Below are positions 40,858 to 64,000 of a DNA stretch of 64,000 nucleotides, in pieces. Numbering within the stretch: position 1 is the stretch's first letter; every line of letters starts with the position of its first letter. The stretch is from IMG/VR virus record IMGVR_UViG_3300045599_000077. The stretch is one strand, 5' to 3'. The DNA is from an uncultured virus (IMG/VR IMGVR_UViG_3300045599_000077) (taxonomy: Duplodnaviria > Heunggongvirae > Uroviricota > Caudoviricetes). A program made the position numbers and the translations under genes. The notes beneath the pieces are model-generated. The model made no database searches. It was not told the origin of the DNA and saw nothing but the letters and a program-made list of their open reading frames with translations.

Positions 40858-40934
40858 CAAAGGGAGCGAGTAAAAAAGCATTTTTGCTTTAGCTTCACAG
40901 AGTTTCCCTAAAAAATTAACTATTAGATGTATAT

Positions 40935-40971: not shown

Positions 40972-40998
40972 ATGCTCTGATTTTATTTTATTTTTACA

Positions 40999-41041
40999 AA
41001 TCCTCAACTTCGACCTGTTCCCGCGGCTATTAGGTAGGAGG
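40999..41041 (+). promoter_or_regulatory. Phage-specific promoter motif copy 3
   Basis: AATCCTCAAC-N16-GGCTATTAGGTAGGAGG. Confidence 0.7.
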
Positions 41042-41050
41042 TGATTCTAC

Positions 41051-41287: not shown

Positions 41288-41348
41288 ATTCGTTGATATA
41301 TAAGGATTTCAGAGGTAATATGTGACCTACCAAGAAGGAGGTGAGACG

Positions 41349-42908: not shown

Positions 42909-42913
42909 GAAAA

Positions 42914-48211: not shown

Positions 48212-48259
48212 GATATGTTTCCACCTACCGATAGTGCCAAAAATGCCATGGATATGTTT
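48212..48259 (+). repeat. Partial duplicate of att arm (DMFP repeats)
   Basis: 28 of first 31 nt identical to 50550-50580; same 39-bp spacing of GA(T/C)ATGTT. Confidence 0.75.
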
Positions 48260-48279
48260 GTGAGAACGGACATACTCAA

Positions 48280-48691
48280 AGAGATGAACTAGATATATGG
48301 AAAGAGATGCCGTTTGACGTTGTGAAATCTGCCAAAGAATATAATAGGTTTATGACGGAATACTTTAATGATGTTTACGGAAGTAAAGAAGTTTTATTTT
48401 TTCAGAAGTGTTTACTTGTTTGTGATAAAAATGATACTCCTATAGGGACGTGCTTTGTATGGAAGGCATATGAAAAAATTTCTACAATCCATTGGTTTAA
48501 AGTCCGGAAAAACTATGAAAGATCAGGCACTGGTAGAGTTTTGCTTTCCATTGTTATGAGAAATATTAAATATTAAAGAGAGTGACTATCCGGTATTTCT
48601 TCATACACAACCATCGAGCTTTCAAGCAATAAAATTGTATTCTGATTTTGGATTTGCTTTTTTAACAGACCCAATAATCGGATATAGATAA
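48280..48691 (+). pseudogene. GNAT acetyltransferase pseudogene
   Basis: IHWFKV..YERSGTGR motif; TATTAAA duplication 48564-48577 shifts frame; continuation ESDYPVFLHTQPSS...LYSDFGF. Confidence 0.7.
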
Positions 48692-48864
48692 AAGTAACTC
48701 CTGAAAAATGCTGGTTTTAAGACTGTTGAAGTATTGTATCAAAATGAAGGAACAGCAATTATTAAAGCGGAAAAATAGAAGCAAACATTAAAAATGCCGA
48801 ATGATTTCTAAATGAAAAAATTTAGTTTAGTTCATATTATAAAGGGAAAGGAGCGCATTAACAG

Positions 48865-49443
48865 ATGTCAGATAAGAACTTTGTTCAGAAAAGTGATGAA
48901 GAACTTCAGAAATTTGTAGTAGGTGATTTAAAGCCTCATGATTCGCAAATTACGCTTGTCGAATACGATTCGGATTGGCCAAATTTGTTTGAAAGGGAAG
49001 CACGTAGGATTTGCTCAGCACTTGGGAACAAAGCGCTACGGATTGAGCATGTGGGTTCTACTTCGGTTCCTGGGCTTTGTGCAAAGCCAATCATCGATAT
49101 GCTGCTGGTTGTTAAGGATTCTGCTGATGAGTCATCCTACGTTCCGATGTTAGAAGCAGCTGGATATGTGCTACAGATTCGAGAACCTGACTGGTTGGAG
49201 CATCGTTTGTTTAAAGGACCGGATACCGATATTAATCTGCATGTGTTCAGTTTGGGCACACCAGAGATTGATAGAATGCTACGCTTTAGGGATTGGTTAC
49301 GGTCTAATGAAAGTGACCGGGAAAAATACGCACAAGTAAAACGAAATCTCGCTAAGAATAAGTGGAGGCATGTTCAACATTATGCAGATGCAAAAACATC
49401 CATTGTTCAGGAGATTATGGAACGTGCGAATAGTGTTGAGTAA
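48865..49443 (+). CDS. GrpB-family nucleotidyltransferase-fold protein
   Basis: IEHVGSTSVPGLCAKPIID, LHVF, FRDWLR, YADAK. Confidence 0.88.
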   Translation: MSDKNFVQKSDEELQKFVVGDLKPHDSQITLVEYDSDWPNLFEREARRICSALGNKALRIEHVGSTSVPGLCAKPIIDMLLVVKDSADESSYVPMLEAAGYVLQIREPDWLEHRLFKGPDTDINLHVFSLGTPEIDRMLRFRDWLRSNESDREKYAQVKRNLAKNKWRHVQHYADAKTSIVQEIMERANSVE

Positions 49444-49691
49444 TATTATGATTCAGGTGTCAAAAACACTTTATCGCCTATATTTAAAATTTCCTTCTTA
49501 AATATATGGTCTTTAAAAAATGTATTAAATATGCTGTTATGTTTCCACTTTAATGATAAGATAATATCGTCATTTATTTGGAATTAGGTTTTCATATTTT
49601 GTTTAATACATAAAAAAACGCCCTTTTGACACTCCAATCATACTATCTTGGCAGAATTTTTATTATATTTATTGAAGTGGTGAAAAGGAAT

Positions 49692-50477
49692 ATGAAATAT
49701 ATGAATAACCAAGAAATTCCCATAGAAGCTATTAAAGCATTGAAAATTATCAATGAACTACTTGGTGATATGCTAGTTGGTATATATTTATATGGTTCAG
49801 CAGTAATGGGAGGTTTACGCAAGGAAAGCGATGTAGATATTTTGGTGGTAACCAATCGTGATTTATCCGAAAGGACTCGAATAGATCTTACAGATAGGTT
49901 AATGTTTATATCTGGTAAAATAGGAAACATAAATGCTAATAGACCCCTTGAAGTTACAGTCATAAATCAAAAAGATGTTATTCCTTGGCATTTTCCTCCC
50001 AAATATGAATTTATGTACGGTGAGTGGCTAAGAGAGCAGTTTGAAAAGGGAGAAATTCCTGAGCCGACTTATGAGCCGGATTTAGCAATACTTTTAGCAC
50101 AACTAAGAAAAAATAGTATTAACCTTTTGGGACCAAAGGCAACAGAAGTAATAGAGCCTGTGCCGATGACAGATATTCGAAAAGCAATTAAAGAATCGTT
50201 GCCCGGGTTGATAGCCAGCATTAAAGGTGACGAACGCAATGTGATTTTAACGTTAGCCAGAATGTGGCTAACAGCATCTACTGGTGAAATCAGATCAAAG
50301 GATCAGGCAGCTGAATGGGCAATTCCTCAATTACCCTATGAGCATTCCATTTTACTTGACAAAGCAAGAAAGGCTTATCTAGGAGAGTATATTGATAAGT
50401 GGAATGGAATGGAGTCTGAGGTGACTGAACTTGTTAATTATATGAAGAAGTCTATAGAATCTTCTCTTGATCTCTAA
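49692..50477 (+). CDS. ant(9): Spectinomycin adenylyltransferase ANT(9), Spw-like
   Basis: YGSAVMGGLR.ESDVD, RPLEVT, YGEWLR, DERNVILTLARMW; closely resembles Spw/Spc by recall. Confidence 0.88.
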   Translation: MKYMNNQEIPIEAIKALKIINELLGDMLVGIYLYGSAVMGGLRKESDVDILVVTNRDLSERTRIDLTDRLMFISGKIGNINANRPLEVTVINQKDVIPWHFPPKYEFMYGEWLREQFEKGEIPEPTYEPDLAILLAQLRKNSINLLGPKATEVIEPVPMTDIRKAIKESLPGLIASIKGDERNVILTLARMWLTASTGEIRSKDQAAEWAIPQLPYEHSILLDKARKAYLGEYIDKWNGMESEVTELVNYMKKSIESSLDL

Positions 50478-50549
50478 AAGGCTGGTTGTTGAGAACTCCA
50501 TTGATAGATTCTCTCATACTGAAATTTTTTAAAATGGTCAAAACCGCTG

Positions 50550-50687
50550 GATATGTTCCCGCCTACCGATAGTGCAAAAAGCGGCGATGACATGTTTCCG
50601 ACTACCAACAATGTGAAAGACATCAATCCATCCCGCTCGTTGCATGTGGAGTGTGTGGTAGGAATATATTTGAGGGATGGGGAATAG
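50550..50687 (+). other. Putative attR: rlmD/rumA 3'-end-like remnant
   Basis: One frame reads DMFPPT...DMFPTT...HVECVVGIYLRDGE*; DMFPxTxHVE is the RlmD C-terminal motif. Confidence 0.7.
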
Positions 50688-50691
50688 TCTA

Positions 50692-50904
50692 ATGGGCAAA
50701 AACAAAGCTAATATTCAGCGTTGGTTGGATATGCCATCTGAACGACAGCAAATGTTTTTAGCAAATGTATGGTGTGTACATTGTAGGGATGTAGTAACGA
50801 TTATTGATTATAAAGTTGAGCCTCATGATATAGGTGTCGTTTTACGAGGGAAATGTAACACTTGTGGTCACGCAGTAGCAAGAGTCATTGAGATGGACAA
50901 TTAA
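50692..50904 (+). CDS. Small CxxC-CxxC zinc-finger-like hypothetical protein
   Basis: WCVHC...KCNTC; followed by terminator. Confidence 0.65.
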   Translation: MGKNKANIQRWLDMPSERQQMFLANVWCVHCRDVVTIIDYKVEPHDIGVVLRGKCNTCGHAVARVIEMDN

Positions 50905-50921
50905 ATTTAGATAGAACAAAG

Positions 50922-50950
50922 AGCATCTGCTGTGAAGGTAGGTGCTTTTT
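50922..50950 (+). terminator. Intrinsic terminator
   Basis: AGCATCTGCT...GGTAGGTGCT + T-run. Confidence 0.7.
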
Positions 50951-51166
50951 GTTTTGTTTGAATAGATGAAAATTGATAATTGATCATGTAAACGCCAATT
51001 GCCTGCGGGAATGTGGGGGATTTTCTTTTCGTTAGTCTCAAATATTTCTAAGATCATACAACTTCCATATATGTAAATATTTCTAATTTTGTTATTAAAA
51101 ATATGGCTTGTAAGAGGTATCATTATATATATCAAATTAAGTAGAATGAACTTTGGAGGCATACAT

Positions 51167-54037
51167 ATGAGTACCGCATATCATAGCCAGTATTTTGCAT
51201 ATGAACTTACTAAACAAAATTCTTCTTCTTCTATTGATCGGTTAAGTCAATCTTTAATCAATGCTACTGTTGATTTAAACCCTCATCAGGTAGAAGCAGC
51301 TCTTTTTGCATTTAGGGCTCCTTTGACAAGAGGGGCATTACTTGCAGACGAGGTTGGATTAGGAAAAACGATAGAAGCTGGTCTTATTATAAGTCAATTG
51401 TGGGCGGAGCGGAAAAGGAGAATACTTGTCATATGTCCTCCACCACTTCGAAAGCAATGGAATCGGGAGCTTATTGAAAAATTTTATATTCCTTCACTTA
51501 TACTAGAAAGTCTGAATTTTAATCAACTAAGCAAGCAAGGAATTAAAAATCCTTTTAAACAAGAAGATCAGATCGTGATTTGTTCCTATCAGTTCGCTAG
51601 AAATAAGGCAAATGAAATTAGTCGTATCGATTGGGATTTAATTATTATTGATGAGGCTCATCGCTTGCGAAATGTTTATAAGAAATCAAATAGAATTGGA
51701 CGAGCGTTAAGGCAGGCAACCAAAGGATTTCCAAAAATTTTGTTAACGGCTACACCTTTGCAAAATTCACTTATGGAATTGTATGGTTTAGTAAGTTTTA
51801 TCGACCCGTATATTTTTGGTGATGAAAAATCTTTTCGAAAACAATTTTCACGTACATCAAAGGAAATGTTAGATTCTGATTTTTTAGATTTAAAGCAAAG
51901 GATTAGACCAATCTGTCATCGGACGTTAAGAAGCCAGGTAACAGAATATGTGAATTATACACATCGAATCTCTGTAACCCAAGAATTTACTCCTACGTTG
52001 GCTGAGGAAGACTTATATAATAAAGTATCCACCTATTTACAGCGGGAACAACTTTACGCTTTGCCAAAAAGTCAAAGAAAATTGATGACGCTCGTTGTTC
52101 GAAAATTATTGGCATCCTCTTCGTTTGCTATTTCTGATACACTTTTGTCCTTAACTCAACGATTAGACAAGGCACTTCAGGAAATAAACATGGAACAGGA
52201 TGAACCAAGTTTTCTAGCAGACATAGATGAGATCGAAGAAACGAAGGAAGAATGGGAAGAAGAGGAAACATCTCTTGACGATGATGATTTAACATCAGAG
52301 CAGAAAAGAAAGAAGATCGAGGAAGAAAAGCAAGAATTATCTGCCTATCATCAACTCGCACAATCAATAACCGAGAATGCAAAGGGAGAAGCACTTCTTT
52401 TAGCTTTGAGAAATGGATTTGAGAAATTAAGGGATTTAGGTGCAAATGAAAAAGCCATTATTTTTACCGAATCCAGAAGGACGCAAATCTATTTAAAAGA
52501 AATGCTTGAATTAAACGGCTACAAGGGTAAAATTGTCATGTTTAATGGAACAAACAATGATGACGAGACAAAAGCTATCTATAAATCATGGCTTGAAAAA
52601 CATCAAAATGATGATCAAGTTACTGGTTCAAAAACTGCTGATACTAGAGCTGCTCTTGTGGAACATTTTCGCAATCATGCATCTGTCATGATTGCTACAG
52701 AATCAGCAGCTGAAGGAATAAACTTACAATTTTGCAGCTTGGTTGTTAATTATGATTTGCCCTGGAATCCGCAGCGAATTGAACAACGAATTGGTCGTTG
52801 CCACCGCTATGGACAGAAACATGATGTAGTCGTGATCAACTTCCTTAATCGTAAGAATGAGGCGGATAAACGTGTGTTTGACATTTTATCTGAAAAGTTT
52901 CGGCTTTTTGACGGAGTTTTCGGTTCGTCTGATGAAGTTCTAGGTTCTTTAGAATCAGGAGTCGATTTTGAAAAAAGAATTCAAGAAATATATCAAAATT
53001 GCCGAACATCTGAAGAGATCTCCGAAGCCTTTAATCAGTTGCAAAATGAATTAGATGAACAAATACAAGCAAAAATGAAAGAAACAAGAACGCATCTACT
53101 TGAAAATTTTGATGATGAAGTCCGTGAAAAATTAAGAGATCATTATGAGAAAACCCATTTGCAAATGAACAAAATGGAACGGTATCTATGGGAACTGTCC
53201 AAATTCGAGGGAGCAAGAAAAGCAAGTTTTGATGATCATACACTTAGCTTTCAATTGCATGGAAATGAAGTTCACTATCAAATGCTTTCACGAGCAAAAA
53301 AAGTAGAAATAGATAATAAGCAAGTTAATCATTATCGACTAGGTCATCCTCTTGCTATTGAATGGATTAATCAAGCGAAAGAACGTATATTACCTCCAAG
53401 GGAAATCACTTTTCGGTATTCAGATTATGAAGGAAAGGTAAGTGTATTAACCTCTCTAATTGGAAAAGAGGGCTGGTTATCACTTGATTTATTGCAGGTG
53501 GATTCTCTTGAAAAGGAAGAGTATCTAGTCTTTTCTTGCATTGATCAAGATGGGAATCAAATTGAACAAGAGGTATGTGAAAGGATGTTCTACCTTCCTG
53601 CATACGAAGGTGAAGAAATTGAGGTTTCTGAATCCATTTTACATACTCTTACGAGAATGAAAGAAGTCCAGGAAACTTCAACGCTGAATATCATTATGGA
53701 TCGAGCTGGTGAATACTTGGATGCGGAAATTGAAAAGTTGGAGAAGTGGTCAAAAGATCTTAAAATAAAGTTAGAAGATGTAATTGACGAAATAACGATT
53801 GAGATCAATCAATTAAAGAAAGAAGCAAAGTTAGAACGTCAAGTTATTAAGAAACTAGAAATAAATAAGCAGATTAAAGAACTTGAAAATAAACGGAGTG
53901 AAATGCGGAGAAATTTATATGATCAACAACAACAAATTGATGATCAAAAAGAAAGATTATTCGCTGAAGTAGAAGAAAAAATTCAACAAAAGGTAACGAA
54001 GGAGCATTTGTTTCTCATTAAATGGCGAATGATTTAA
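51167..54037 (+). CDS. SNF2/RapA-like helicase associated with R-M genes
   Basis: LADEVGLGKT, DEAH, LTATP, EQRIGRCHRYGQ, C-terminal coiled coil; GGAGG RBS before ATG 51167. Confidence 0.88.
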   Translation: MSTAYHSQYFAYELTKQNSSSSIDRLSQSLINATVDLNPHQVEAALFAFRAPLTRGALLADEVGLGKTIEAGLIISQLWAERKRRILVICPPPLRKQWNRELIEKFYIPSLILESLNFNQLSKQGIKNPFKQEDQIVICSYQFARNKANEISRIDWDLIIIDEAHRLRNVYKKSNRIGRALRQATKGFPKILLTATPLQNSLMELYGLVSFIDPYIFGDEKSFRKQFSRTSKEMLDSDFLDLKQRIRPICHRTLRSQVTEYVNYTHRISVTQEFTPTLAEEDLYNKVSTYLQREQLYALPKSQRKLMTLVVRKLLASSSFAISDTLLSLTQRLDKALQEINMEQDEPSFLADIDEIEETKEEWEEEETSLDDDDLTSEQKRKKIEEEKQELSAYHQLAQSITENAKGEALLLALRNGFEKLRDLGANEKAIIFTESRRTQIYLKEMLELNGYKGKIVMFNGTNNDDETKAIYKSWLEKHQNDDQVTGSKTADTRAALVEHFRNHASVMIATESAAEGINLQFCSLVVNYDLPWNPQRIEQRIGRCHRYGQKHDVVVINFLNRKNEADKRVFDILSEKFRLFDGVFGSSDEVLGSLESGVDFEKRIQEIYQNCRTSEEISEAFNQLQNELDEQIQAKMKETRTHLLENFDDEVREKLRDHYEKTHLQMNKMERYLWELSKFEGARKASFDDHTLSFQLHGNEVHYQMLSRAKKVEIDNKQVNHYRLGHPLAIEWINQAKERILPPREITFRYSDYEGKVSVLTSLIGKEGWLSLDLLQVDSLEKEEYLVFSCIDQDGNQIEQEVCERMFYLPAYEGEEIEVSESILHTLTRMKEVQETSTLNIIMDRAGEYLDAEIEKLEKWSKDLKIKLEDVIDEITIEINQLKKEAKLERQVIKKLEINKQIKELENKRSEMRRNLYDQQQQIDDQKERLFAEVEEKIQQKVTKEHLFLIKWRMI

Positions 54038-54060
54038 TAGATTGGACATGAGGTGTAAAA

Positions 54061-55815
54061 ATGAGTAAGAAAACGAGATTGGAATTAACGTGGATAGGTA
54101 AGGATGAGCGTCCTAATTTAGAACCACGAATATTAATTGAAGATCCAGAGCTATCTTATCATGCGAAACATAGGGTAACGGATAATGATATTTTTGATAA
54201 TAGGTTAATCTTTGGGGATAATTTACTTGCATTGAAGGCATTGGAGCAAGAGTTTACAGGGAAAATAAAGTGTATCTATATAGATCCTCCCTATAATACT
54301 GGGAATGCATTTGAGCATTATGATGATGGACTTGAACACTCGATATGGTTAAGTTTAATGAAGCAACGACTTGAGATACTGCACAAGTTGCTAAGAACCG
54401 ATGGTGTTCTATTTGTTCAATTAGATGATTCAGAGCAAGCATATCTAAAAGTGATTTTAGATGAAATATTTGGGAGAAAAAATTTTGTAGCCCAAATTAC
54501 CTATGAAAGATCCTCGGTAGGTGGCTTAGGTCAAGGTGGAGTTGTTGTTAATACAGGTGAATACATCCTAGTGTATAAAAAGGAAGAATATGGATTTAAT
54601 GAAGTTCAGTCGTATGAGCCAATTGATCTAAAAACGATGAAAAGATATAACAAAATAATGGTTGATTATGGGGAGAGAATTCTTATCGATGAATTTGAAT
54701 CAAAATCAAATGGAGAGAAAGTAAGACTTTTTAAGCATACTGATTATAAAATTGAAACATTTTCATTTAAAAATTATAAAAGTGAAAAAGATAAAATTGA
54801 CTTAGAATATGCACAAAAATTCGATAGTTTATTCAGAACTTTTCTAATTCAAAAGGAAAATAGTTTCCAACAAGATTTAATTTCCAGAATGGATAAGACC
54901 TGCCTATACTCTATTGAATATATTCCTTCACGAGGGAAAAACAAGGACAAATTAACTAACCTCTATTATCTAAACAATGAGTTAGTCGGTTGGCTAAAAG
55001 ATAGTGCAAGCTTAGAGGGAAATTTGGTTATGAAGTCATCCAAATTAACAAATGTTTGGACTCACTCGGAAATACCTAAAGCTGATTTACCAAATGAAGG
55101 TGGAGTGTCATTTCCGAGAGGGAAAAAGCCAGAACAATTGTTAAAAAGAATTATTGAGTGGTCAACAAACGAAGGGGATATTGTTTTAGATTCTTTTGCA
55201 GGATCTGGAACAACAGGTGCAGTAGCACATAAATTGGGGAGAAAATGGATAATGATTGAACTAGGAGAGCATTGTCATACTCATATTATTCCACGTCTAA
55301 AGCGTGTAATAGATGGATCAGACCAAGGTGGAATCAGTAAAACGGTTAACTGGCAAGGTGGCGGAGGATTCCGCTACTATCGTCTTGCACCAAGTCTACT
55401 TGAAAAGGATAAATACGATAACTGGATTATAAGCAAGCAGTATAATGCTGAAATGCTTGCTGAGGCCATGTGTAAACATGAAGGATTTATTTATCAGCCA
55501 GATGATACAATTTATTGGAAACAAGGGAAATCAACAGAAAACGATTATATTTACACGACTACTCAACTCATTAACCGAAATGTTCTTGATCAAATCTCAG
55601 ATCAGTTAGGCGAGAATGAGACATTACTGATATGCTGTAAAGCCTTTAATGTGAACCCGGATGATTTTCCAAATATAACACTAAAGAAAATTCCAACATC
55701 GATTCTAAGTAAATGTGAATTTGGAAAAGACGATTACAGTTTAAGAATTAGTGAACTCCAATATAAAGATATAAATCAGCAATTGGAGATGTTTGAAGGG
55801 GAGGAGAACGAATGA
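54061..55815 (+). CDS. Type III-like R-M Mod subunit (N6-adenine MTase)
   Basis: GDNLLAL, IDPPYNTG, KPEQLL, DSFAGSGTT, GGGFRYY. Confidence 0.88.
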   Translation: MSKKTRLELTWIGKDERPNLEPRILIEDPELSYHAKHRVTDNDIFDNRLIFGDNLLALKALEQEFTGKIKCIYIDPPYNTGNAFEHYDDGLEHSIWLSLMKQRLEILHKLLRTDGVLFVQLDDSEQAYLKVILDEIFGRKNFVAQITYERSSVGGLGQGGVVVNTGEYILVYKKEEYGFNEVQSYEPIDLKTMKRYNKIMVDYGERILIDEFESKSNGEKVRLFKHTDYKIETFSFKNYKSEKDKIDLEYAQKFDSLFRTFLIQKENSFQQDLISRMDKTCLYSIEYIPSRGKNKDKLTNLYYLNNELVGWLKDSASLEGNLVMKSSKLTNVWTHSEIPKADLPNEGGVSFPRGKKPEQLLKRIIEWSTNEGDIVLDSFAGSGTTGAVAHKLGRKWIMIELGEHCHTHIIPRLKRVIDGSDQGGISKTVNWQGGGGFRYYRLAPSLLEKDKYDNWIISKQYNAEMLAEAMCKHEGFIYQPDDTIYWKQGKSTENDYIYTTTQLINRNVLDQISDQLGENETLLICCKAFNVNPDDFPNITLKKIPTSILSKCEFGKDDYSLRISELQYKDINQQLEMFEGEENE

Positions 55816-58502
55816 ACCGATTCGTGAATACGATATCCGCTCGTCTAAGCTTAAGAATACCACAGCGGGAATCTTTAGAGATTCTCGCTCAAGTTACGGA
55901 TGAAATTGAACTATCTAAAAGTGATCAGCATAGTTTAACACAAAAACTCGAAAAAATAAAAACTTTATTTCCATCGGTTGAGGATTTTGAGAGAGAATTT
56001 CCTTCTTTGTGTTTTGCTCTAGCAACAGGTGTAGGTAAAACTCGATTAATGGGAGCATTTATTTCCTATTTACACCAAGCAAAAGGCGTCAATCATTTCT
56101 TTGTGTTAGCACCCAACCTTACCATCTATAATAAACTCATACAGGATTTTACGCCTAATACACCAAAATATGTATTTCAAGGAATCTCTACTTTTGCAAA
56201 TAAGCCCCCTTTCATTATCACAGGTGAAAACTACGAACAGAGTGGTATGTTTTTGCTAGACCCTGAATTAGTTAAAATTAATATTTTTAATATTTCGAAG
56301 ATTAATTCTGAGGTTAGAGGCGGTAATGCTCCTAGAATTAAGCGGTTAAGTGAGTACATAGGAGAAAGTTATTTTAATTATTTATCGGGATTACCTGATT
56401 TAGTGTTGCTTATGGATGAGTCTCATCGGTATAGAGCATCGGCAGGAGTTAAGGCACTAAATGAATTAAAGCCCGTACTTGGTATTGAATTAACAGCAAC
56501 CCCACAAGTGGAGTCAGGTTCCAAAACCATTCCATTTAAAAACGTAATATATAGTTTTCCTCTACACAAAGCAATGGAGATGGGGTATGTGAAAGAACCG
56601 GCTGTTGCTACAAGGGAGAATTTTGATGCTAGTAACTATTCGGAAGATCAACTTGAACGATTGAAACTGGAAGACGGAATTCGTGTGCATGAAGAAACAA
56701 AAATTGAATTAGAGGTATATGCAAGGCAAAATCATAAGCCGATTGTAAAACCATTTGTTTTAATCGTTGCACAAGATACAAACCATGCAAGTGATTTGAT
56801 GTCGATTATTCAATCGGAGGATTTCTTTGAGGGGAGATATAAAGGGAAGGTCATCACGGTTCATTCCAATCAGCGTGGAGAAGAAAAAGATGAGACCATC
56901 CAACAGCTTATATCGTTGGAAGACCCTACTTCTGATACTGAAATTGTTATTCATGTTAATATGCTCAAAGAAGGTTGGGATGTAACCAATCTATATACGA
57001 TTATACCGCTTCGTGCTGCCAATTCTAAAACGCTTGTGGAGCAGTCGATTGGGCGAGGGCTTCGTTTGCCGTATGGAATGCGAACGGGCGAAATGTCAGT
57101 TGACCGATTAACTATTATTGCCCATGATCGTTTCCAAGAAATTATTGATGAGGCAAATAACCCTAATTCGATCATTCGAGCTGGTGTTATCATTGGACGT
57201 GACGTGGCTCAAGAGCAAAAAATATCCATTACGATTGAACCTACCATAGATGTTCAAGTAATACAAAAAGTCGTAAGTAATATAGACAAGGAATTGGGGA
57301 ATAATCCCGATTCTTCTGGTGATCAGATTACTCAGAAGAAAATTGAAGTAAAACAAGAAATAGCCAAAAAAACAATGGAAACCATTCGAAAGTATGAATA
57401 TAAAGCGAATACCCGTGATTTGTCAACCAATGATTTTAAAGTTCAAGTTGTCCAAGAAATACAGGAGGCTTACCAACACCAGCAGTTAGAGATGTTTGAA
57501 GAACCAAAGGAAAAAATTATCGAAGAGACTGTTAAGCAAGTTCTTCAATTGTGTGAAGAATTAACAATTAACATTCCTAGAATTATTGTTCAACCAACAG
57601 GTGACCTGACTTGGGGGTATAAAGATTTTGATTTAGATGTAAGTAAAATTCATTTGCAGCCTGTTGATGAAAATATTCTTATACAGCATTTGAGAACCCA
57701 TCAACGTGAATTGTTAACCAACAGGAAACGGTCTTATACGATGGAGAGATTAGAAGACTATCTTGTTGCAGCTCTAATGGATTATGATGATATATCCTAT
57801 GATGATCACGCCGAATTACTATATAAATTAGCGGGGCAACTTGTAACACACTTACAAAGCTACCTGTTAAAGGAAGAAGAAGTCTTAAATGTTCTTCAGT
57901 ATAATCAGCGATTGCTAGCAGATCTCATCCATTCTCAAATGAAGGAATATTATTTTGAGAAGGCGACATCTTATGAAGTTATTGTAAGTAAGAAGTTTGA
58001 AACATTAAAGTCTGTAAACTGTTCCATCAATAAAGTGGATGGTTCCCGAAATTTCCGTGAGCCAGTAGAAGATAAGCTATCTATTAAAAGTATGGTTTTT
58101 AATGGATTTGTTAAGTGCTTATATCAACAACAGAAGTTTGATTCTGACAGCGAACGAAGATTTGCAGTAATATGTGAGAATGATGTGAATGTACTCAAAT
58201 GGTTTAAACCATCTAGAAATGACTTGAAAATATATTATAATCATACCCATGTTTATGAGCCGGATTTCATTGTAGAGACCAATGACAAGAAATATATCGT
58301 TGAGGTTAAAAAGGCAAATGAACTTGATGACAAGATCGTACAGGCTAAAGCCTCGGCTGTTGTAGAATGGTGCAACCATGCCACTAAGTTTGAGTTAGAA
58401 AATGGTGGAAAAGAATGGGCTTACCTTCTTATTCCGCATACAGATGTTAAGGAAAATATGACAATCACTGGGTTAGAATCAAAATATCGTTTATCTAAAT
58501 AA
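55812..58502 (+). CDS. Type III-like R-M Res subunit
   Basis: ATGVGKT, DESH, TATP, QSIGRGLR; C-term YEPDFIVE...VEVK nuclease. Confidence 0.88.
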   Translation: MNRFVNTISARLSLRIPQRESLEILAQVTDEIELSKSDQHSLTQKLEKIKTLFPSVEDFEREFPSLCFALATGVGKTRLMGAFISYLHQAKGVNHFFVLAPNLTIYNKLIQDFTPNTPKYVFQGISTFANKPPFIITGENYEQSGMFLLDPELVKINIFNISKINSEVRGGNAPRIKRLSEYIGESYFNYLSGLPDLVLLMDESHRYRASAGVKALNELKPVLGIELTATPQVESGSKTIPFKNVIYSFPLHKAMEMGYVKEPAVATRENFDASNYSEDQLERLKLEDGIRVHEETKIELEVYARQNHKPIVKPFVLIVAQDTNHASDLMSIIQSEDFFEGRYKGKVITVHSNQRGEEKDETIQQLISLEDPTSDTEIVIHVNMLKEGWDVTNLYTIIPLRAANSKTLVEQSIGRGLRLPYGMRTGEMSVDRLTIIAHDRFQEIIDEANNPNSIIRAGVIIGRDVAQEQKISITIEPTIDVQVIQKVVSNIDKELGNNPDSSGDQITQKKIEVKQEIAKKTMETIRKYEYKANTRDLSTNDFKVQVVQEIQEAYQHQQLEMFEEPKEKIIEETVKQVLQLCEELTINIPRIIVQPTGDLTWGYKDFDLDVSKIHLQPVDENILIQHLRTHQRELLTNRKRSYTMERLEDYLVAALMDYDDISYDDHAELLYKLAGQLVTHLQSYLLKEEEVLNVLQYNQRLLADLIHSQMKEYYFEKATSYEVIVSKKFETLKSVNCSINKVDGSRNFREPVEDKLSIKSMVFNGFVKCLYQQQKFDSDSERRFAVICENDVNVLKWFKPSRNDLKIYYNHTHVYEPDFIVETNDKKYIVEVKKANELDDKIVQAKASAVVEWCNHATKFELENGGKEWAYLLIPHTDVKENMTITGLESKYRLSK

Positions 58503-58535
58503 TTAACAATCAGGACAATCTCTACTGGAGGTATT

Positions 58536-58754
58536 ATGGCAGACATCAAATACGAAATCATCCAAACCATTGGCATCCTATCCGAAGGATCAAAAGGCTG
58601 GCGAAAAGAACTCAACCTAATTAGCTGGAACGGTCGAGATCCAAAATACGATATTCGAGATTGGTCAGAAGATCATTCCAAAATGGGCAAAGGTGTTACA
58701 TTGGATAAGGAAGAGTTGACGAGTTTGAAACAGATTTTGAAAAACCTAGACTAA
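58536..58754 (+). CDS. YdbC/PC4-family ssDNA-binding protein
   Basis: GWRKELNLISWN..PKYDIRDW...KMGKGVTL. Confidence 0.85.
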   Translation: MADIKYEIIQTIGILSEGSKGWRKELNLISWNGRDPKYDIRDWSEDHSKMGKGVTLDKEELTSLKQILKNLD

Positions 58755-58785
58755 TGTTACCGTTGACATCATTTTTTAGAAAACT

Positions 58786-58802
58786 ACAAATTGACAATTT
58801 GT
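58786..58802. promoter_or_regulatory. Palindromic operator overlapping TTGACA
   Basis: ACAAATTG-A-CAATTTGT perfect 8-bp inverted repeat. Confidence 0.45.
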
Positions 58803-58892
58803 TCATGTAAAATGTAACTGGAGGTTCATCCCTCTGGTTTATTTTTTTAGAAGTTGTTTTTACAGGAAATCTGAAATTTAGAGGTAATGTGG

Positions 58893-59009
58893 ATGGAAAA
58901 ATATTCATTAACTATGAAAATTATCATGGCGTTTGTAGCAGTCATGTTCATTGGTATATTGTGGGTGATTCTTAAAATATTAATGTTGGTGGTTGGGATT
59001 TTTAGTTAA
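58893..59009 (+). CDS. 38-aa hydrophobic membrane peptide (not in ORF track)
   Basis: GAGGT RBS; MEKYSLTMKIIMAFVAVMFIGILWVILKILMLVVGIFS. Confidence 0.55.
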   Translation: MEKYSLTMKIIMAFVAVMFIGILWVILKILMLVVGIFS

Positions 59010-59061
59010 CATTGCCATACCTTGTTTTCCTTTATTTCCACTCCTATGGAGGTCAAAATAG

Positions 59062-62000
59062 ATGAAACAAAGACTCATTAAAATGTATCGATTTGGACGA
59101 GAATGTATTTCTGATGGGGTTATTAATGCAGAAAAAATGGAAGATCAAATCATATCTCTGTCGGATAGTTTTCTACTATTTGCTTGGGAATGTTATCGAA
59201 ACGAAAAGTTAGTCGATGGACAACTTATCACAGAACTCATTAAAGTCATGTTGCCTGCTTCAGAAGAAGCTGCCAAGATCGAGTGGGAAAATGGACTAAC
59301 GTTCAATGGTCAAAAATATTACGCATGGTTCGCAACCACTGGCGGCATGAAAAAAGAGGATTCCGGCAAATGTGAAACGATATTTATACGAGAAGATTGC
59401 CGGACGTTTGCAGAAGAATTTGAGGATTTAATTTCTCTCGGCAAGTTTAAGGAAATCGAAGAAAGCAAGAAGAAAATTTGCATCAATAAAGATATTCTAA
59501 GCCGGATCTCACTTGGAGTCAGTAGTTCTTTTATTGCTGGTGATATGCCCGATTTGATTGTATTGCCCCAGCCAAGATTTAAAATAGTGAAGGACTATAA
59601 GACAGTTGAAAAATACACAAAAGAAGTCGATGGGAAGACATTAGTCGATTATGAATTGGTAGATTATCACTTCGATGATGAGATTGATGTGTTTGATGGG
59701 GGTGCGATTGCTACTCCAAATGTATTCTCTCAAATTCAGGAATCGTTAAAATTAAATTATCCGGTTGAATTCGCTATCATCAGAGGTTACGGAATCGGCA
59801 TCAAAGGCATGATTACCAAGTTTGATATCATTGGATACTTGGATGAGATCTATAAGGAAGATACAGAATATTGCCGAAAAGTAAATGGTGAATATCAGTT
59901 GTTAGATATGTGGAAGCAATGGCAAACTGTAACGGACAACACGATCCTCTTGAATGAGAGCATGGTTAAGTTGGCTAAGTACTATGATTCCACCAAAGGC
60001 GAGAATATGAGTACCTATAAGGAAAGACTGGCAACGGTTGACCCCAAGTATAAGGATATAATCGGAAAACTGTATGTCACGAAAGTCAATAAACGAGAAA
60101 GTGACATTGAGGATTACAGAAGAACCAATTATCAATTAATCAATGCGTTGGCATTAAGTAAGGCTGACTACTTTGAATTGATCAAGGATGAAGTTCGATC
60201 TTATAAGAAAATTTTAAAGCCATTCAATAAAGCTAGTGACAAGGATGAATGGCTCATTAATATAGATGCAATACGACTGTTTTTCAGAAATATCATTAAA
60301 GGGGAATATGAAGATACAGAGAGCGAAGAATTCCAAGAGGAAGTTAAACGCATCAGTCAGAATGTCGTTACAAAATGTGAAGAATTACTCCATATTTCCG
60401 AGGATTTTGTAAAGTTGAAATTTGTGAAGAACAATCTTGCTAGAATGATAGAGAAGAAGTGCAGAGAGATTGCGAGTGGCAAATTCACCGTCAAAGCCAA
60501 ATATCAGTACATAGCCGTCTGTCCGATCTCCTATATGAACTTTGCCATGTTTCGTGACCAGTGTGAAAATGGGCTACAAGCTGGACAATTTTATAGTGCC
60601 GATTGTAACGATCGAGACATACGGACAATAAGCCGAAATCCATTGTGCGCTTATTCGGAAGTACATAACGTTTCATTTGTTAGAAATGATGAATTTGATA
60701 AATGGTTTAGTCCTTGTCGAGAATTGATTTATTTCAATCAAAAATCGGATATATTAGCCCTGATGTCATCGGCTGATACGGATGGCGATGCTTGTACAGT
60801 GATTGATAATGAGATCATCAGGAATGCAGTCGTTGTACCGAAAGATGGCAAGTATTTCTTCAATAAAGATGATGGTCATAAAGAAGAGATGGAATTTAAC
60901 TCTGAAAACCGTTTTTTGGCCACGTATAGAGCAAGCGGAAATTTAATCGGAAAAATCAGCCTGAAGGCAGCTAATATCAATTCGGATAGCCAAAAAACAC
61001 TCGATTATTATGATGTAGCCAATAACCAATTCATCCTTTTTAATTCGCTTGATATAGAAGACAAAGAAGAACGGCAAGCATATATTGACGTAAAATTGGA
61101 AAGTGGCGATTGGTTAACCACATATAAAGCAAGTGAACAACACCGGGAGTATATTAGACGACGGTTCTATGAGAATGAAAAGGACATTTATATTGTTCTT
61201 TATAATGCGATGGTCAGCATTGATGCACCGAAGACACTGTATTTTCCAAGTGCTGATGATATGAAGGTAATCGATAAAAAGTATCCCAGGAAAGCATGGT
61301 TTCTGCAATACAGGGAGAATAAAGAGGATGTAGTATTAAATCAGTACACCTATCAGTCTGGGCTTCTGGATATTTTTACAAAAGAAATCAGGACACAATT
61401 ATTAGATGTGATAGGTAAAATTCAACGGAAATTTGACAACCGGGCGGACATCATACAGCAAAAGTTAATCAATGGTGATTATAACACAGAGGACTATCCT
61501 TCTTGTATTGAAGCAGTTGAGAGTTTGTATAGTAGTTATACAAGTGATAGAGAGTTAGCCAATAAACAATATTTAAGCGAGAAGAAAAAGCTTGATAAGA
61601 AAAAACGGGAAGATATGAATCGGTATGGCTGGGACGAATTTAGAGAACAAGAATATCAAGCCGATGTAAAAAAGATAAAAGATGAGAGGTATACCAAATA
61701 TAAAGAGATTGATGTAGAGTATATTGTCTCAGCCGATAAGATCATTGATAAATATGATTTGGCTACAATTGCAAATGCCATTGGAAATATGAAAAATTGC
61801 ACCGAAGCATTTATCATTAACCTTTTTTATCCTGTGTTTGAATATCTCAATCAAAAACTTCAGAGTAACAGATGGGTATATAAAAAGGATGAAGATGGGG
61901 ATATTCGCTTCTTAGGTGAACGTTATGACAAAATTCCCATTGGGTTTGTAGATAATCGAGACATTGTAAAGAAGCATCATATCGATGAAAAGAAAAGGCT

Positions 62001-62295
62001 GAAAGTGATTAGCGTTAAGGCTGATATTAGAGCTAGGGTGCTGGATAAAGAAGCAATCAGTACGATCCAATCTGAATTGAAGAATCAAAACTATATCGTT
62101 TTTGATATTAAGGTAAATGATAACAAGGTAGTATTGTCGAGAGAGGATAAGGGATTGTTGGAAGTATTTAATGAATTTCTACAGATTAATCAATACAATT
62201 TGCTCAACTGTAGTAGTGTTAAATTTGAACTATTGGCTGATATCGCTAAAAGTAAGAAAAGTGTAAAATTGATTGCTACTGAGATTACGGTATAG
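59062..62295 (+). CDS. Single-subunit two-barrel RNA polymerase, eukaryotic RdRP/YonO-like
   Basis: Ordered motifs SRISLGVSS, FDG, IRGYGIGIKG, ESMVK, NYQ, GLQAGQF, SRNP (60634), SSADTDGD (60775-60789), IG.I, IDAPKT; GGAGG RBS. Confidence 0.85.
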   Translation: MKQRLIKMYRFGRECISDGVINAEKMEDQIISLSDSFLLFAWECYRNEKLVDGQLITELIKVMLPASEEAAKIEWENGLTFNGQKYYAWFATTGGMKKEDSGKCETIFIREDCRTFAEEFEDLISLGKFKEIEESKKKICINKDILSRISLGVSSSFIAGDMPDLIVLPQPRFKIVKDYKTVEKYTKEVDGKTLVDYELVDYHFDDEIDVFDGGAIATPNVFSQIQESLKLNYPVEFAIIRGYGIGIKGMITKFDIIGYLDEIYKEDTEYCRKVNGEYQLLDMWKQWQTVTDNTILLNESMVKLAKYYDSTKGENMSTYKERLATVDPKYKDIIGKLYVTKVNKRESDIEDYRRTNYQLINALALSKADYFELIKDEVRSYKKILKPFNKASDKDEWLINIDAIRLFFRNIIKGEYEDTESEEFQEEVKRISQNVVTKCEELLHISEDFVKLKFVKNNLARMIEKKCREIASGKFTVKAKYQYIAVCPISYMNFAMFRDQCENGLQAGQFYSADCNDRDIRTISRNPLCAYSEVHNVSFVRNDEFDKWFSPCRELIYFNQKSDILALMSSADTDGDACTVIDNEIIRNAVVVPKDGKYFFNKDDGHKEEMEFNSENRFLATYRASGNLIGKISLKAANINSDSQKTLDYYDVANNQFILFNSLDIEDKEERQAYIDVKLESGDWLTTYKASEQHREYIRRRFYENEKDIYIVLYNAMVSIDAPKTLYFPSADDMKVIDKKYPRKAWFLQYRENKEDVVLNQYTYQSGLLDIFTKEIRTQLLDVIGKIQRKFDNRADIIQQKLINGDYNTEDYPSCIEAVESLYSSYTSDRELANKQYLSEKKKLDKKKREDMNRYGWDEFREQEYQADVKKIKDERYTKYKEIDVEYIVSADKIIDKYDLATIANAIGNMKNCTEAFIINLFYPVFEYLNQKLQSNRWVYKKDEDGDIRFLGERYDKIPIGFVDNRDIVKKHHIDEKKRLKVISVKADIRARVLDKEAISTIQSELKNQNYIVFDIKVNDNKVVLSREDKGLLEVFNEFLQINQYNLLNCSSVKFELLADIAKSKKSVKLIATEITV

Positions 62296-62378
62296 AGTGG
62301 GCAAGCTTGCACTGGTTCACTTACGTTCACCGAGTGCAAGTCGTCCCGACCCACTTTTGTGGAATAGTGTAAACTATT
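62294..62378 (-). other. Branched hairpin element between polymerase and small gene
   Basis: Bottom strand ACTTGCACT-C-GGT-GA-AC-GTAA-GT-GA-ACC-AGTGCAAGC, closed by AGAGTGGG/CCCACTTT; further AATAGT-GTAA-ACTATT hairpin. Confidence 0.6.
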
Positions 62379-62401
62379 ACCTACAATTTGGAGGTCACTA
62401 T

Positions 62402-62584
62402 ATGAATGATACCATTGTCATTACACAAGAACGAATGGCTGGATGGCTCATGTTTAATCGATTTCATAAATTGGATGAAAAACTGGATTTAAAGAATCCG
62501 AATCGAAGGGTTTATATTTTTAAGGATTCTCCGCAATTAAGACAAGTCATGACCAAATATAACGAGTTTAAACAGCAGTTGTAG
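62402..62584 (+). CDS. Small DUF5659-like putative DNA-binding protein
   Basis: GGAGG RBS; MAGWLMFNRF...RVYIFKDSPQL...Y pattern. Confidence 0.65.
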   Translation: MNDTIVITQERMAGWLMFNRFHKLDEKLDLKNPNRRVYIFKDSPQLRQVMTKYNEFKQQL

Positions 62585-62601
62585 TCATGAGGGGGTTCAA
62601 T

Positions 62602-64000
62602 ATGGATGGGGAGCAAAACAAAAAAGTTATTATTGAGAATTTTGAATATAAGCGCCAGTATAAAGAAATCGTTACTTCTAACGGTGAAAAGTACATAGAT
62701 GCAAATAATTATACATATTGGACAACCAATATTACCGTTGAAGTATTAAAGCCGGAACAAATTGTTTTCCTAAACAATGATATAGAAAGATTTGCAAAGG
62801 AAGTCCAAGATAAATTTACAGGGCTATTTGATGCTAGAAAAAACAAAATCACCGAAGGACAAATAAAATTTAGCTATGATGCTACCCTAAGTATAATGGG
62901 AGAAGTGAGAAATCCTGACAAAATTACAATCATACCAGCAAAAGCTGGTTTTGGAAAGTCAAGCTACATATATTCCTTTTTAAGTAACCTATGTAGTCAT
63001 ATTAAGAATAATGATTCAAGTTCTTTTAGTGGACAAGGTGTTATAATCGTTACCGATAAAATAGAGTCACTTAGACAACTCGAGAAAGACATTTTTAAAG
63101 ATATGGACTATTATCATGTCGGAGATTATAAGACGAGATACACCTATATTCTTGAAGCTTGGAATAAGAATTCTTTTCGAGATGGTATATGTAAAAATGA
63201 AGCCATTGAAGAATATGAATATGGGATGTGTAGCGGCAATGAATGTCCATTTTATAACAACTGTAAAATGAGCTACCAAAAAAAGCAGCAGGTTTATAGT
63301 CCGATACTTCTTATTACCAATGCAAGATTTAGACAGTTTCAAGAGAGGATTGAAGAGTATAAAACCTGGATTGATAAGAACGGTAACTATCAAGAAAGAA
63401 ACATCGTAATTATTGATGAAAAGCCCACAATCATTGATGACTACAGGGTTGATACAGATTTGTTTTCTACGTTGAAGAAAACTGTGGAGGAAGTAAAAGT
63501 AGATGTTTCTGAAAATAAAAACAAAGAGTTTCTGCTGAAAGAATTATTAATGGTAGAAGATGAAGTATTAAACTTGAGAAGTGAAATGGGGCAGTATAGA
63601 AATTGCATTTATTGCGGAACTAAAGAAAAGCTATTTAGTGATGAATTTAATGAAAAATGGGGTGCGTTGATTGGTTATAAGCACATTAATTCATTAAATG
63701 CCTTAGAGAGAATGTTTACTCAGGGAGCGCTATGGTGTAATGCAAATGCCCCGTATTTTAAAACTCTTGGTATTAAACAATTTAATTATAGCGGCTTCAA
63801 AACATATATTTTTGATGCTACTGCTGAACTCGATCCTGATTATGATGATGAAAGGTTCCAATTTTTAAGTATAGACGACTATAAAAATTATGAGAACATT
63901 ACATTTCACATTTTCAGGGATAAAAAAATGAACATGAGTCGAAGTGCCTTGGATTTAAAGAAGCACTATTGGAAAAACAAAGCAGTTGCTGAATGGATCA
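62602..64000 (+). CDS. SF2-type helicase/ATPase with four-Cys cluster, partial (runs off window; absent from ORF track)
   Basis: Frame open from ATG 62602 to window end; PAKAGFGKS (62935), C-x12-C-x4-C-x5-C (63190-63264), IIDEKP (DE at 63415), FDAT (63814). Confidence 0.75.
   Translation, partial: MDGEQNKKVIIENFEYKRQYKEIVTSNGEKYIDANNYTYWTTNITVEVLKPEQIVFLNNDIERFAKEVQDKFTGLFDARKNKITEGQIKFSYDATLSIMGEVRNPDKITIIPAKAGFGKSSYIYSFLSNLCSHIKNNDSSSFSGQGVIIVTDKIESLRQLEKDIFKDMDYYHVGDYKTRYTYILEAWNKNSFRDGICKNEAIEEYEYGMCSGNECPFYNNCKMSYQKKQQVYSPILLITNARFRQFQERIEEYKTWIDKNGNYQERNIVIIDEKPTIIDDYRVDTDLFSTLKKTVEEVKVDVSENKNKEFLLKELLMVEDEVLNLRSEMGQYRNCIYCGTKEKLFSDEFNEKWGALIGYKHINSLNALERMFTQGALWCNANAPYFKTLGIKQFNYSGFKTYIFDATAELDPDYDDERFQFLSIDDYKNYENITFHIFRDKKMNMSRSALDLKKHYWKNKAVAEWI

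Follow-up and report, generated by a model that had tools for sequence, protein, structure and literature searches.

The virus record IMGVR_UViG_3300045599_000077 (64,000 nucleotides (nt); this whole stretch is called the window below) ends with a group of genes arranged around the gene of a putative two-barrel RNA polymerase (RNAP). All open reading frames (ORFs) predicted between positions 58536 and 64000 exist, lie on the + strand and are tightly spaced, as had been stated in the original prediction, which was made from the sequence alone. They encode a YdbC/PC4-type protein of 72 amino acids (aa) that is predicted to bind single-stranded DNA (ssDNA; 58536..58754), the RNAP (1077 aa, 59062..62295), a DUF5659-like protein (60 aa, 62402..62584) and an XPD/DinG-like superfamily 2 (SF2) helicase, of which only the N-terminal 466 aa are located within the window (62602..64000). 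A conserved structured element (62297..62385, + strand) begins 2 nt past the RNAP stop codon. The common ribosome-binding-site context claimed earlier for the RNAP gene and the small gene behind it is real; GGAGGTCA is found 5' of both (59048-59055 and 62390-62397, respectively). We tentatively regard these genes as a unit for starting the replication of the mobile element that carries them.

The locus was compared with RNAP-anchored sets of 24 genome loci and 22 IMG/VR loci and with 23 helicase-anchored IMG/VR loci, 22 of which have upstream sequence (single loci are given below by their L numbers). The genome loci were found by an alignment-based contig scan; a scan with the single protein found none.

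The polymerase, the helicase and the small proteins

The RNAP was modelled with AlphaFold (predicted local distance difference test (pLDDT) 90.5, predicted template modelling score (pTM) 0.81). When this model was compared with the PDB using Foldseek, QDE-1 (2j7n) came first (E 2e-14, probability 1.00), followed by plant RDR2 and the RNAPs of Thermus phages P74 (gp62) and P32 (gp64) (probability 1.00), and then by the virion RNAP of the crAss-like phage phi14:2. The best match among the viral predicted structures of BFVD was a 'RNA dependent RNA polymerase' of a metagenomic phage (E 4.4e-29). Furthermore, the protein could be aligned with YonO of SPbeta using hhalign (probability 91.2%, E 1e-6, 22% identity over 460 columns), and in this alignment the ADTDGD sequence of the window RNAP is matched by FDNDGD of YonO. 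Eight residues are invariant across two-barrel RNAPs according to Ruprich-Robert and Thuriaux (PMC2919709). All eight are present here (D212, R241, K248, R525, P527, D572, D574 and D576); across the 77 homologues (34-84% identical) whose alignment underlies the model, each is either invariant or at least 90% conserved. The spacing is also close to that of QDE-1 (positions from PMC2919709): 29 residues separate D212 from R241 as they separate D709 from R738, R525-x-P527 corresponds to R962-x-P964, and the DxDGD motif lies 45 residues past the Pro (43 in QDE-1). K248 is the sole residue off the QDE-1 spacing, by two residues. Because the fold matches, the YonO alignment and the invariant residues agree, the earlier identification of a two-barrel RNAP is right, and on the strength of the model the 1077-aa protein is a single-chain enzyme of the YonO/QDE-1 clade. 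The polymerase looks active, RNA synthesis being predicted from its intact catalytic residues.

The protein has no match of its own in Pfam (E<=0.1, including PF05183), NCBIfam or PDB sequences. The missing PF05183 match is a question of sensitivity and thus no evidence against the RNAP fold: PF05183 is precomputed for 11 of the 120 homologues among the matches listed, and several homologues are named 'RNA dependent RNA polymerase' in their source. Close homologues occur in strains of Fredinandcohnia humi and Paenibacillus durus, and the identical protein is also encoded on a contig of 151 kb. Distant relatives detected by tblastn belong to Enterocloster and Thomasclavelia phages, Bacillus phage 0305phi8-36 (ORF099) and Clostridium plasmids; at E<=1e-5, tblastn gives no match between the window RNAP and YonO, and no RNAP match was obtained in the nearest genome (G001) or the nearest virus record (G002). 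Neither the polymerase family nor its occurrence in prophages is new. YonO-like polymerases, which resemble RNA-dependent RNA polymerases (RdRPs), have been published for phages and prophages of Firmicutes since 2003-2017 (PMC2919709, PMC5467207), and the group is also treated in PMC7824862, bioRxiv 10.1101/842583 and PMC7281927.

The start of the helicase was placed at 62602 (MDGEQ...), as in P0126 (734 aa), in which the same protein is complete. The alignment reveals the conserved helicase motifs GFGKS (116-120, Walker A) and DEK (272-274) as well as a FDATAE box and a QEVFRT..R box. Four cysteines (C197, C210, C215 and C221), each at least 90% conserved, are located between Walker A and Walker B, which is where XPD and DinG carry a 4Fe-4S domain. 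The Cys region is modelled as coil (pLDDT 58-73), and the cysteines are missing in the family members of L020 and L024. For the full-length helicase (model pLDDT 86.7), the nearest Foldseek neighbours are of the DinG/XPD type, i.e., CasDinG (8s35_M, E 9.7e-13), XPD and DinG (E 9.7e-13 to 1e-8). The VIA alignment against representatives leads to the same proteins: seven XPD/DinG-type chains are aligned over 409-520 residues with Z 12.7-13.6 (top rows, DinG/XPD, Z 13.3-13.6), followed by reverse gyrase (Z 12.0) and other SF2 helicases (Z<=11.4). The Pfam families DEAD_2 and Helicase_C_2 match neither the window fragment nor the full-length orthologue from L001.

The helicase family is large. A profile search of 1.84 billion representatives yielded 1030 relatives at E<=1e-3, of which 346 reach E<=1e-30. 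Many of the relatives are ~960-1030 aa long with a C-terminal helicase part. In a domain scan of 16 longer or other homologues, RepB_primase, a primase of the archaeo-eukaryotic (AEP) type, was present in five (E 4e-6 to 3e-10; two further matches are weak) and a DnaG-type CHC2 zinc ribbon in eight, in each case N-terminal to the helicase. Because of these N-terminal fusions, we take the family to provide the helicase part of the primase-helicase proteins that other elements possess. One helicase homologue is encoded two genes downstream of a gene for a ParM-type, actin-like segregation protein (L055:8464-9393; Clostridium ParM structure 7x54, E 6.5e-102) on a 39-kb viral contig, which probably represents a plasmid-prophage.

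The gene product called single-stranded DNA-binding protein (SSB) in the original prediction is a YdbC/PC4 homologue, for which ssDNA binding can be predicted from its family (Pfam PC4, 46 bits versus a cut-off of 25, E 3.7e-12; phrog_26484, E 1.6e-27; PDB homologues YdbC 2ltd/2ltt, E 3e-24, and 3pm7, E 2e-26). A PC4 gene is present upstream of the RNAP gene in 7 of the 24 genome loci and in 6 viral loci from 4 distinct contigs. In the window, it is separated from the next ORF by a terminator-like hairpin with a T-run (58816..58849, + strand, consensus scan); the fold of the PC4-RNAP intergenic region as a whole does not stand out (z -0.85). Two contigs of the metatranscriptome run X4 (57797-58859, depth 9.0, and 58841-59236, depth 5.4) break and overlap at this hairpin, which is a hint only, as contigs cannot show transcript ends or levels.

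The ORF that follows the hairpin (58893..59009, + strand, from the ORF list; 38 aa, or 40 aa if read from 58887) encodes a hydrophobic peptide and was proposed earlier as a membrane component of the system. It has no homologue among the ORFs of the 24 loci and no counterpart in any of the 7 related PC4-bearing loci, which possess other ORFs or none at that position: in L009 the PC4 gene ends 24 nt from the RNAP gene, and in L004 and L011 an unrelated soluble 60-aa protein is encoded in between. The peptide may have been added locally, or its ORF may have arisen by chance. As it is not conserved, we do not count it in with the set, of which it is probably no part.

For the DUF5659-like protein, the Pfam score (22.7 bits, E 8.7e-5) is slightly below the cut-off of 23.6 bits; it also matches phrog_31546 (E 6e-19). 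The protein is 63-73% identical in 8 genome loci and is better conserved than the RNAP. A PDB sequence search with it gave nothing useful.

A structured element and the linkage of the genes

The 106-nt spacer between the RNAP and DUF5659 genes folds at -38.1 kcal/mol versus -25.8 +/- 3.3 kcal/mol in shuffles, of which none out of 200 was as good (fold z of the element, -3.78). The element consists of an outer stem (GTGGG/CCCAC), an inserted covarying helix within the 5' arm, the box CCACTTTTGTGGAA and a second small hairpin. In 13 of the 18 RNAP 3' ends examined, a GC-rich hairpin starts no more than ~25 nt, and mostly no more than 4 nt, past the stop codon and is followed by a T-run and then by G(T/C)G(G/A)A, the window version of which is the box CCACTTTTGTGGAA. 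The window copy with its extra helix is a long form; the short forms have a 7-bp stem with inner covariation (GTGGCTC/GAGCCAC, GTGGGGC/GCCCCAC, GTGGGGG/CCCCCAC, GTAGGGC/GCCCTAC) and a constant TTCCA loop. In an alignment of 12 sequences, 91.5% of the cells are paired (39-47% with slid partners), nine pairs change on both sides, and the observed scores were reached by no shuffle. There is one copy of the element per locus. Rfam has no match within 57500-64000. The 12-mer CCACTTTTGTGG alone is not significant within the window, as 27 of 100 shuffles also contain one or more matches with <=1 mismatch; what gives it weight is that it recurs at the same position, along with the covariation. A search with a loose box pattern gave mostly chance matches, and the hairpin was found only with the copies after RNAP genes.

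The structured element announced by the original prediction is thus real and constrained, and it is a candidate terminator, polymerase-specific start site or leader, or origin. The U-tract of the window clade is only UUUUGUGG, and the consensus terminator scan did not list the element, though a GC-rich stem is present. No U-tract follows the hairpins of the divergent clades L042, L045 and L079, so that the hairpins there are not canonical terminators. In L045, hairpins with the same CTACCG loop are present both 3' of the RNAP gene and 5' of the DUF5659 gene.

Conservation of the neighbours across homologous loci, on which the original prediction had staked its case, is indeed observed. Among the 15 genome loci with enough flank, 11 possess an SF2 helicase gene within ~2.3 kb 3' of the RNAP gene. 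It encodes the XPD-like helicase in L001, L002, L011, L017, L020 and L024 and an unrelated helicase of the DEAD/ResIII type in the same slot in L005, L010, L014, L015 and L022, while no helicase was found near the RNAP in L006, L007 and L018. A 639-aa protein of L012, considered as a further XPD-like member (hhalign, 26%), could not be placed, and L012 is counted as uncertain. L007 (14680-16887) retains the hairpin after the RNAP gene and encodes a 282-aa protein and a 735-aa GHKL-ATPase/Toprim protein in place of the DUF5659-like protein and the helicase. The 22 RNAP-anchored viral loci divide into 10 with an XPD-like helicase, 6 with the other type of helicase and 6 in which none was detected.

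Seen from the helicase side, a two-barrel RNAP adjoins the helicase in 16 of the 22 assessable viral loci; the remaining six comprise five with identical scores (L051, L052, L053, L056 and L057) and L055. A PDB sequence search with a 422-aa protein of L051 gave nothing useful. The RNAPs linked to the helicase span at least three divergent clades. For example, the helicases of L036 and L037 are 73% identical to that of the window and are accompanied by a very divergent RNAP (E 5e-31), and the RNAP of L054 is detectable only by hhalign (94.3%, motif DCDGD). A strong DUF5659 match is encoded directly 3' of the RNAP in 8 of the 17 genome loci with an RNAP 3' end and flank (one more is located at 2 kb, and two are weak). 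Next to the helicase gene, the DUF5659 gene is found within ~50 nt on the 5' side, mostly within 25 nt, with either type of helicase; in L045 the gene order is DUF5659-helicase-RNAP. Judged by these sequences, the pairing of RNAP and helicase is retained when one or the other of them is exchanged.

The tight linkage of all four genes could also mean that they form a self-contained transcription machine. In such a machine, the helicase and the YdbC/PC4 protein would aid the RNAP in promoter opening, R-loop removal or transcript release, DUF5659 would be a specificity factor, and the hairpin would be the cognate promoter or a regulatory RNA. Hairpin promoters are used, together with SSB, by the virion RNAP of phage N4, and PC4 is named by Pfam as a transcriptional coactivator family. 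Furthermore, the domains separating RNA from DNA (such as the lid) are among the conserved domains of multisubunit RNAPs, most of which are absent from YonO (PMC5467207), and QDE-1 needs replication protein A (RPA) against DNA/RNA hybrids (PMC2950127). Nevertheless, we regard a transcription machine of this kind as improbable: the primase fusions of the helicase family point to replication, the RNAP occurs without the helicase in SPbeta, in phage PMBT24 and in 6 of the 22 viral loci, and PC4 is present in only 7 of the 24 genome loci.

The mobile element, its boundaries and its cargo

The whole set is part of a selfish element, as had been supposed, and this element is phage-derived. Its relatives in three genomes are islands without a tail that have capsid genes and, at their end, a large serine recombinase. 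The bounded island (Fredinandcohnia humi) comprises ~32 kb and is located at the 3' end of an rlmCD-type gene, with an attachment-site (att)-like repeat ~32.6 kb away. The order of genes in this relative starts with the intact rlmCD-type gene, a Type I restriction-modification (R-M) system, PC4, RNAP, DUF5659, helicase and a ParB-methylase; these are followed by the small terminase subunit (TerS), a XerC-like recombinase, the large terminase subunit (TerL), an SPP1-type portal, scaffold, capsid, connector, the large serine recombinase and the att-like repeat. In L001/L028, TerS (phrog_309, E 2.4e-60) and the SPP1 portal (E 8e-94) were identified along with TerL, scaffold, capsid and connector, and the right half of the F. 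humi island recurs in L030 and L031 with the same order of packaging and head genes. These genes were read in relatives only, as the window ends upstream of that region. In prophage-like loci, more distant relatives of the set are flanked by an integrase and Cro region on one side and by the terminase on the other.

Pfam and PHROGs, which left several ORFs of the L001/L028 element without assignment, gave neither tail nor holin families for it, and the gap between connector and serine recombinase in the F. humi island is only ~1.1 kb. The same two databases revealed no primase or replicase, and no replication gene other than those of the set, in the L001/L028 element, and a primase hidden Markov model matched none of the 45 viral loci. 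Two further proteins of these islands deserve mention. The XerC-like tyrosine recombinase (~285 aa, L001:21769-22629; cluster C1, 12 loci) is encoded between the small and the large terminase genes, which is an unusual position, and occurs in addition to the terminal serine recombinase. The ParB-methylase is followed by a 250-aa protein (C7, L001:18340-19089; 6 loci) that matches a PHROG annotated as 'amidoligase enzyme' (E 2.4e-56); for this protein, a PDB sequence search gave nothing useful and the ESM Atlas only 'virulence-related protein' clusters.

The genes from RNAP through capsid are co-directional in the relatives, and this arrangement suits an explanation in which the RNAP is a late-gene transcriptase only. 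It would then be private to the middle and late operon for packaging and head, like YonO, whereas the helicase, DUF5659 and YdbC/PC4 would be ordinary replication neighbours in a compact early region, and the boundary would be marked by the structured element in the role of a terminator, attenuator or leader. YonO is a processive transcriptase, and the SPbeta late genes are transcribed as one operon starting downstream of yonO (PMC5467207). The layouts of SPbeta (yonO, stem-loop, the small DNA-binding protein gene yonN, then terminase and portal) and of Enterocloster phage PMBT24 (RNAP, HU-like protein, terminase, portal) parallel the window locus without a helicase, and some RNAP relatives have no helicase nearby. 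The GC-rich hairpin is found after the RNAP stop codon even if the next gene is a different one (L007, L045). What a transcriptase alone leaves unexplained is why, seen from the helicase side, RNAPs of three divergent clades stand beside one helicase family, and why helicase relatives without an RNAP neighbour are frequently fused to primases; nor are the hairpins of the divergent clades, which lack a U-tract, canonical terminators. We consider this explanation, the main rival of the replication proposal, only slightly less probable than the latter.

The RNAP element follows an rlmCD-like gene in L001, L006 and L016. In the window, the remnant of the 3' end of an rlmCD-type gene (50586..50660, + strand; ..DMFPTT..HVECVV in translation, found also by tblastn with the rlmCD protein of L001) is the probable left boundary of the RNAP-bearing element. 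Four copies of an att-like GATATGTT(T/C)CC core, which encodes the DMFP motif of rlmCD, are present at ~48214, 48250, 50548 and 50586, the last of which continues into ...HVECVV; such cores also occur at L001:2694 and L028:12066. A 21-kb contig from the unrelated run X2 matches 50643-64000 with 1 difference, diverges upstream and skips 48243-50643. The skipped 2.4-kb segment carries GrpB and an aminoglycoside-nucleotidyltransferase-like gene (AadA_C) and is flanked by att-like repeats. It is skipped in the X2 and X4 contigs alike, which have 62 other letters instead, and is a small insertion/deletion cassette. Base composition cannot delimit the element (G+C 0.35-0.36 past 44.9 kb versus 0.35 in the G001 flank).

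Upstream of the RNAP element, the window contains a separate complete tailed prophage (3025-48245). Its genes encode a Cro-like helix-turn-helix protein, a DUF2800 nuclease, an Enc34-type SSB, PolA, an antirepressor, a VapE primase-helicase, SNF2, a sigma-like DUF1492 protein and HNH. Further genes encode TerS, SAM synthetase, ParB-methylase, C5 methylase, TerL, portal, ClpP, capsid, tail proteins, holin and amidase, and the prophage ends in three tandem serine-recombinase ORFs (528, 154 and 526 aa). Past the recombinases, DUF1413, a two-component system and VanY-like cargo extend up to the att-like repeat. Genome G001 (C18) is 92% identical to the window over 28000-44878 only, i.e., in the prophage part. 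A Z1-domain protein and an NgoFVII-like phospholipase D (PLD) restriction endonuclease are encoded on the - strand at 2-3065, beside the Cro-like gene of the prophage. The arrangement suggests that the prophage, the 2.4-kb cassette and the RNAP island were inserted in tandem at one site, with the RNAP element starting at ~50.6 kb.

Between this boundary and the PC4 gene, three cargo genes are located on the + strand: a DrmD-like SNF2 helicase gene (51167..54037; Pfam SNF2-rel_dom, E 5.5e-38; PADLOC DrmD, E 2.3e-221), a Type III R-M methyltransferase gene (54061..55815; Pfam N6_N4_Mtase, E 3.6e-45; PADLOC MTase_III, E 3e-188) and a Type III restriction enzyme gene (55812..58502; Pfam ResIII, E 1.5e-21; PADLOC REase_III, E 3e-220). 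Similar trios of SNF2, methylase and nuclease are found 5' of the RNAP gene in L004, L007 and L015, and part of one in L002. At low depth, metatranscriptome contigs (run X4) extend over the R-M genes, the PC4 gene and some of the RNAP gene; DNA carry-over is possible, and gaps in the coverage carry no meaning.

As the set directly follows these genes, it had been suggested to act with them as an anti-phage module, to which a counter-defence role may be added. Satellites often carry defence cargo (PMC10085698), and the structural neighbours of the helicase include CasDinG and DdmD. We nevertheless reject a defence role, which appears very improbable to us. PADLOC-DB 2.0 has no family matching PC4, RNAP, DUF5659 or P0126 at E<=1e-3, and the upstream R-M and defence genes vary between loci (Type III in the window; Type I, others or none in relatives) while the RNAP set stays. 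Moreover, the position of the set is the one at which early and replication genes are found in phage-like elements. For the first two reasons, the set belongs to the core of the mobile element rather than to a defence system, and the changing R-M genes are cargo.

Role of the gene set and comparison with known systems

With a probability of roughly 40%, we propose that a temperate mobile element of Bacillota, derived from a phage, has its conserved early core in this region and that RNAP, DUF5659 and helicase, often together with YdbC/PC4, form a unit that starts the element's own replication, late transcription being a probable second job of the polymerase. The two-barrel RNAP would make RNA on the DNA of the element, either at a specific site or on ssDNA, and thus provide a primer or an R-loop. 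The XPD-like helicase would enter the displaced strand and unwind the DNA, YdbC/PC4 would coat the exposed single strand, and a host DNA polymerase would extend the RNA. In this scheme, the RNAP would substitute for the AEP primase with which the same helicase family forms fusions in other elements. It would probably also transcribe the downstream co-directional genes for ParB-methylase, terminase, portal and capsid, as YonO does for the late genes of SPbeta.

Priming of replication had been one of the uses considered in the original prediction, and it gains support from the fusions of helicase relatives with an AEP primase and a zinc ribbon. Three further features appear to favour a replication role: the fully examined island carries no other recognized replication gene, the RNAP-helicase pairing seems to outlast the exchange of either partner, and one conserved structured element per locus lies between the RNAP gene and the DUF5659-helicase genes. 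By analogy, a feasibility precedent for priming may be seen in QDE-1, which synthesizes RNA on ssDNA templates with internal start and works with RPA and a helicase (PMC2950127).

Several points weigh against a role in replication. YonO, the sole characterized relative, is a processive late-gene transcriptase and not a primase (PMC5467207). In SPbeta, PMBT24 and a Clostridium perfringens plasmid, the RNAP heads the late region with no adjoining helicase, and no helicase was detected in 6 of the 22 RNAP-anchored viral loci and 3 of the 15 genome loci (4 with L012), from which it follows that the RNAP can stand alone. All loci may share one lineage with a conserved gene order, which makes the linkage weaker evidence than the counts suggest. 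Finally, the helicase could recruit a host primase, and the small ORFs of the element that have no assigned function could hide an initiator.

A more specific form of the replication proposal is doubtful, in our estimate. It holds that the RNAP has displaced the AEP primase as the partner of the XPD-like helicase and that the island replicates from an RNAP-made primer or R-loop at or near the hairpin, with YdbC/PC4 in the part of RPA and DUF5659 as a site or loading factor; the islands would then be a new lineage of tail-less, capsid-forming satellites of Bacillota. If true, this would be the counterpart, in a bacterial element, of the QDE-1/RPA/QDE-3 trio, and the first known replicon using a YonO-like enzyme as primase.

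The original prediction had called the system undescribed. YonO/RdRP-like polymerases are in print, as stated above, so this does not apply to the polymerase. A search of the accessible literature, beyond which further reports may exist, found no report of the coupling of such an RNAP with DUF5659 and an XPD-like helicase, of the primase fusions of the helicase family, of the structured element or of the tail-less, capsid-encoding island context, and DUF5659 was mentioned in none of the papers searched. YonO-like enzymes are the simplest known relatives of cellular RNAPs and of the eukaryotic polymerases of RNA interference (RNAi). Only one of them has been studied, with no known promoter or partners (PMC5467207). 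With its well-conserved and experimentally tractable gene set, the locus suggests possible partners, namely a protein that binds ssDNA, a protein of 60 aa and a putative Fe-S-type helicase. It also supplies a candidate cis element and offers priming of replication as an alternative job for a YonO-like polymerase, which is supported by the fusion of the partner helicase to primases elsewhere. In addition, it points to an island lineage in spore-forming and anaerobic Bacillota that encodes capsids, is tail-less, does without the primase-replicase that defines phage-inducible chromosomal islands (PICIs), carries varied restriction and defence cargo and shares its insertion site with a tailed prophage.

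Among the known systems, YonO is similar in being a single-chain two-barrel polymerase with a DxDGD loop in a temperate phage-type element of Bacillota. Its gene likewise precedes the terminase, portal and head genes in the same orientation, with a stem-loop and the gene of a small DNA-binding protein following it. However, YonO (839 aa versus 1077 aa) is only a distant homologue; no helicase, DUF5659 or PC4 gene adjoins yonO, and SPbeta is a complete phage of 134 kb. The QDE-1/RPA/QDE-3 trio of Neurospora (PMC2950127, PMC9508822) also combines a two-barrel polymerase with an ssDNA binder and an SF2 helicase. It differs in serving a eukaryotic RNAi pathway, and no dsRNA or silencing function is implied for the window set; furthermore, YdbC/PC4 has no homology to RPA, nor the XPD-like helicase to the RecQ-type one.

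Capsid-forming PICIs (cfPICIs, PMC10085698) share with the relatives of the window element an integrase, TerS, TerL, portal, scaffold, capsid and head-tail connector, the lack of tail and holin genes, and defence cargo. In contrast to cfPICIs, the islands described here have a large serine recombinase instead of a tyrosine integrase, and RNAP, DUF5659 and helicase genes are found in the place of the primase-replicase. The bounded island is also larger (~32 kb), and the satellite pattern is known here from the genes of relatives alone. The helicase itself resembles the Rad3-like XPD/DinG proteins, which are its best fold by two methods, and has four cysteines at the position of their Fe-S domain. 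It differs from them by the missing Pfam DEAD_2/Helicase_C_2 matches, the loss of the cysteines in L020 and L024, an N-terminal beta-hairpin and a C-terminal extension. The primase-helicase proteins with a RepB-type AEP primase and CHC2 possess a homologous helicase (E to ~1e-67) and likewise occur in mobile elements. In these proteins, the primase and zinc-ribbon domains precede the helicase on one chain, whereas the window helicase has neither domain and a separate two-barrel RNAP gene is located upstream of it.

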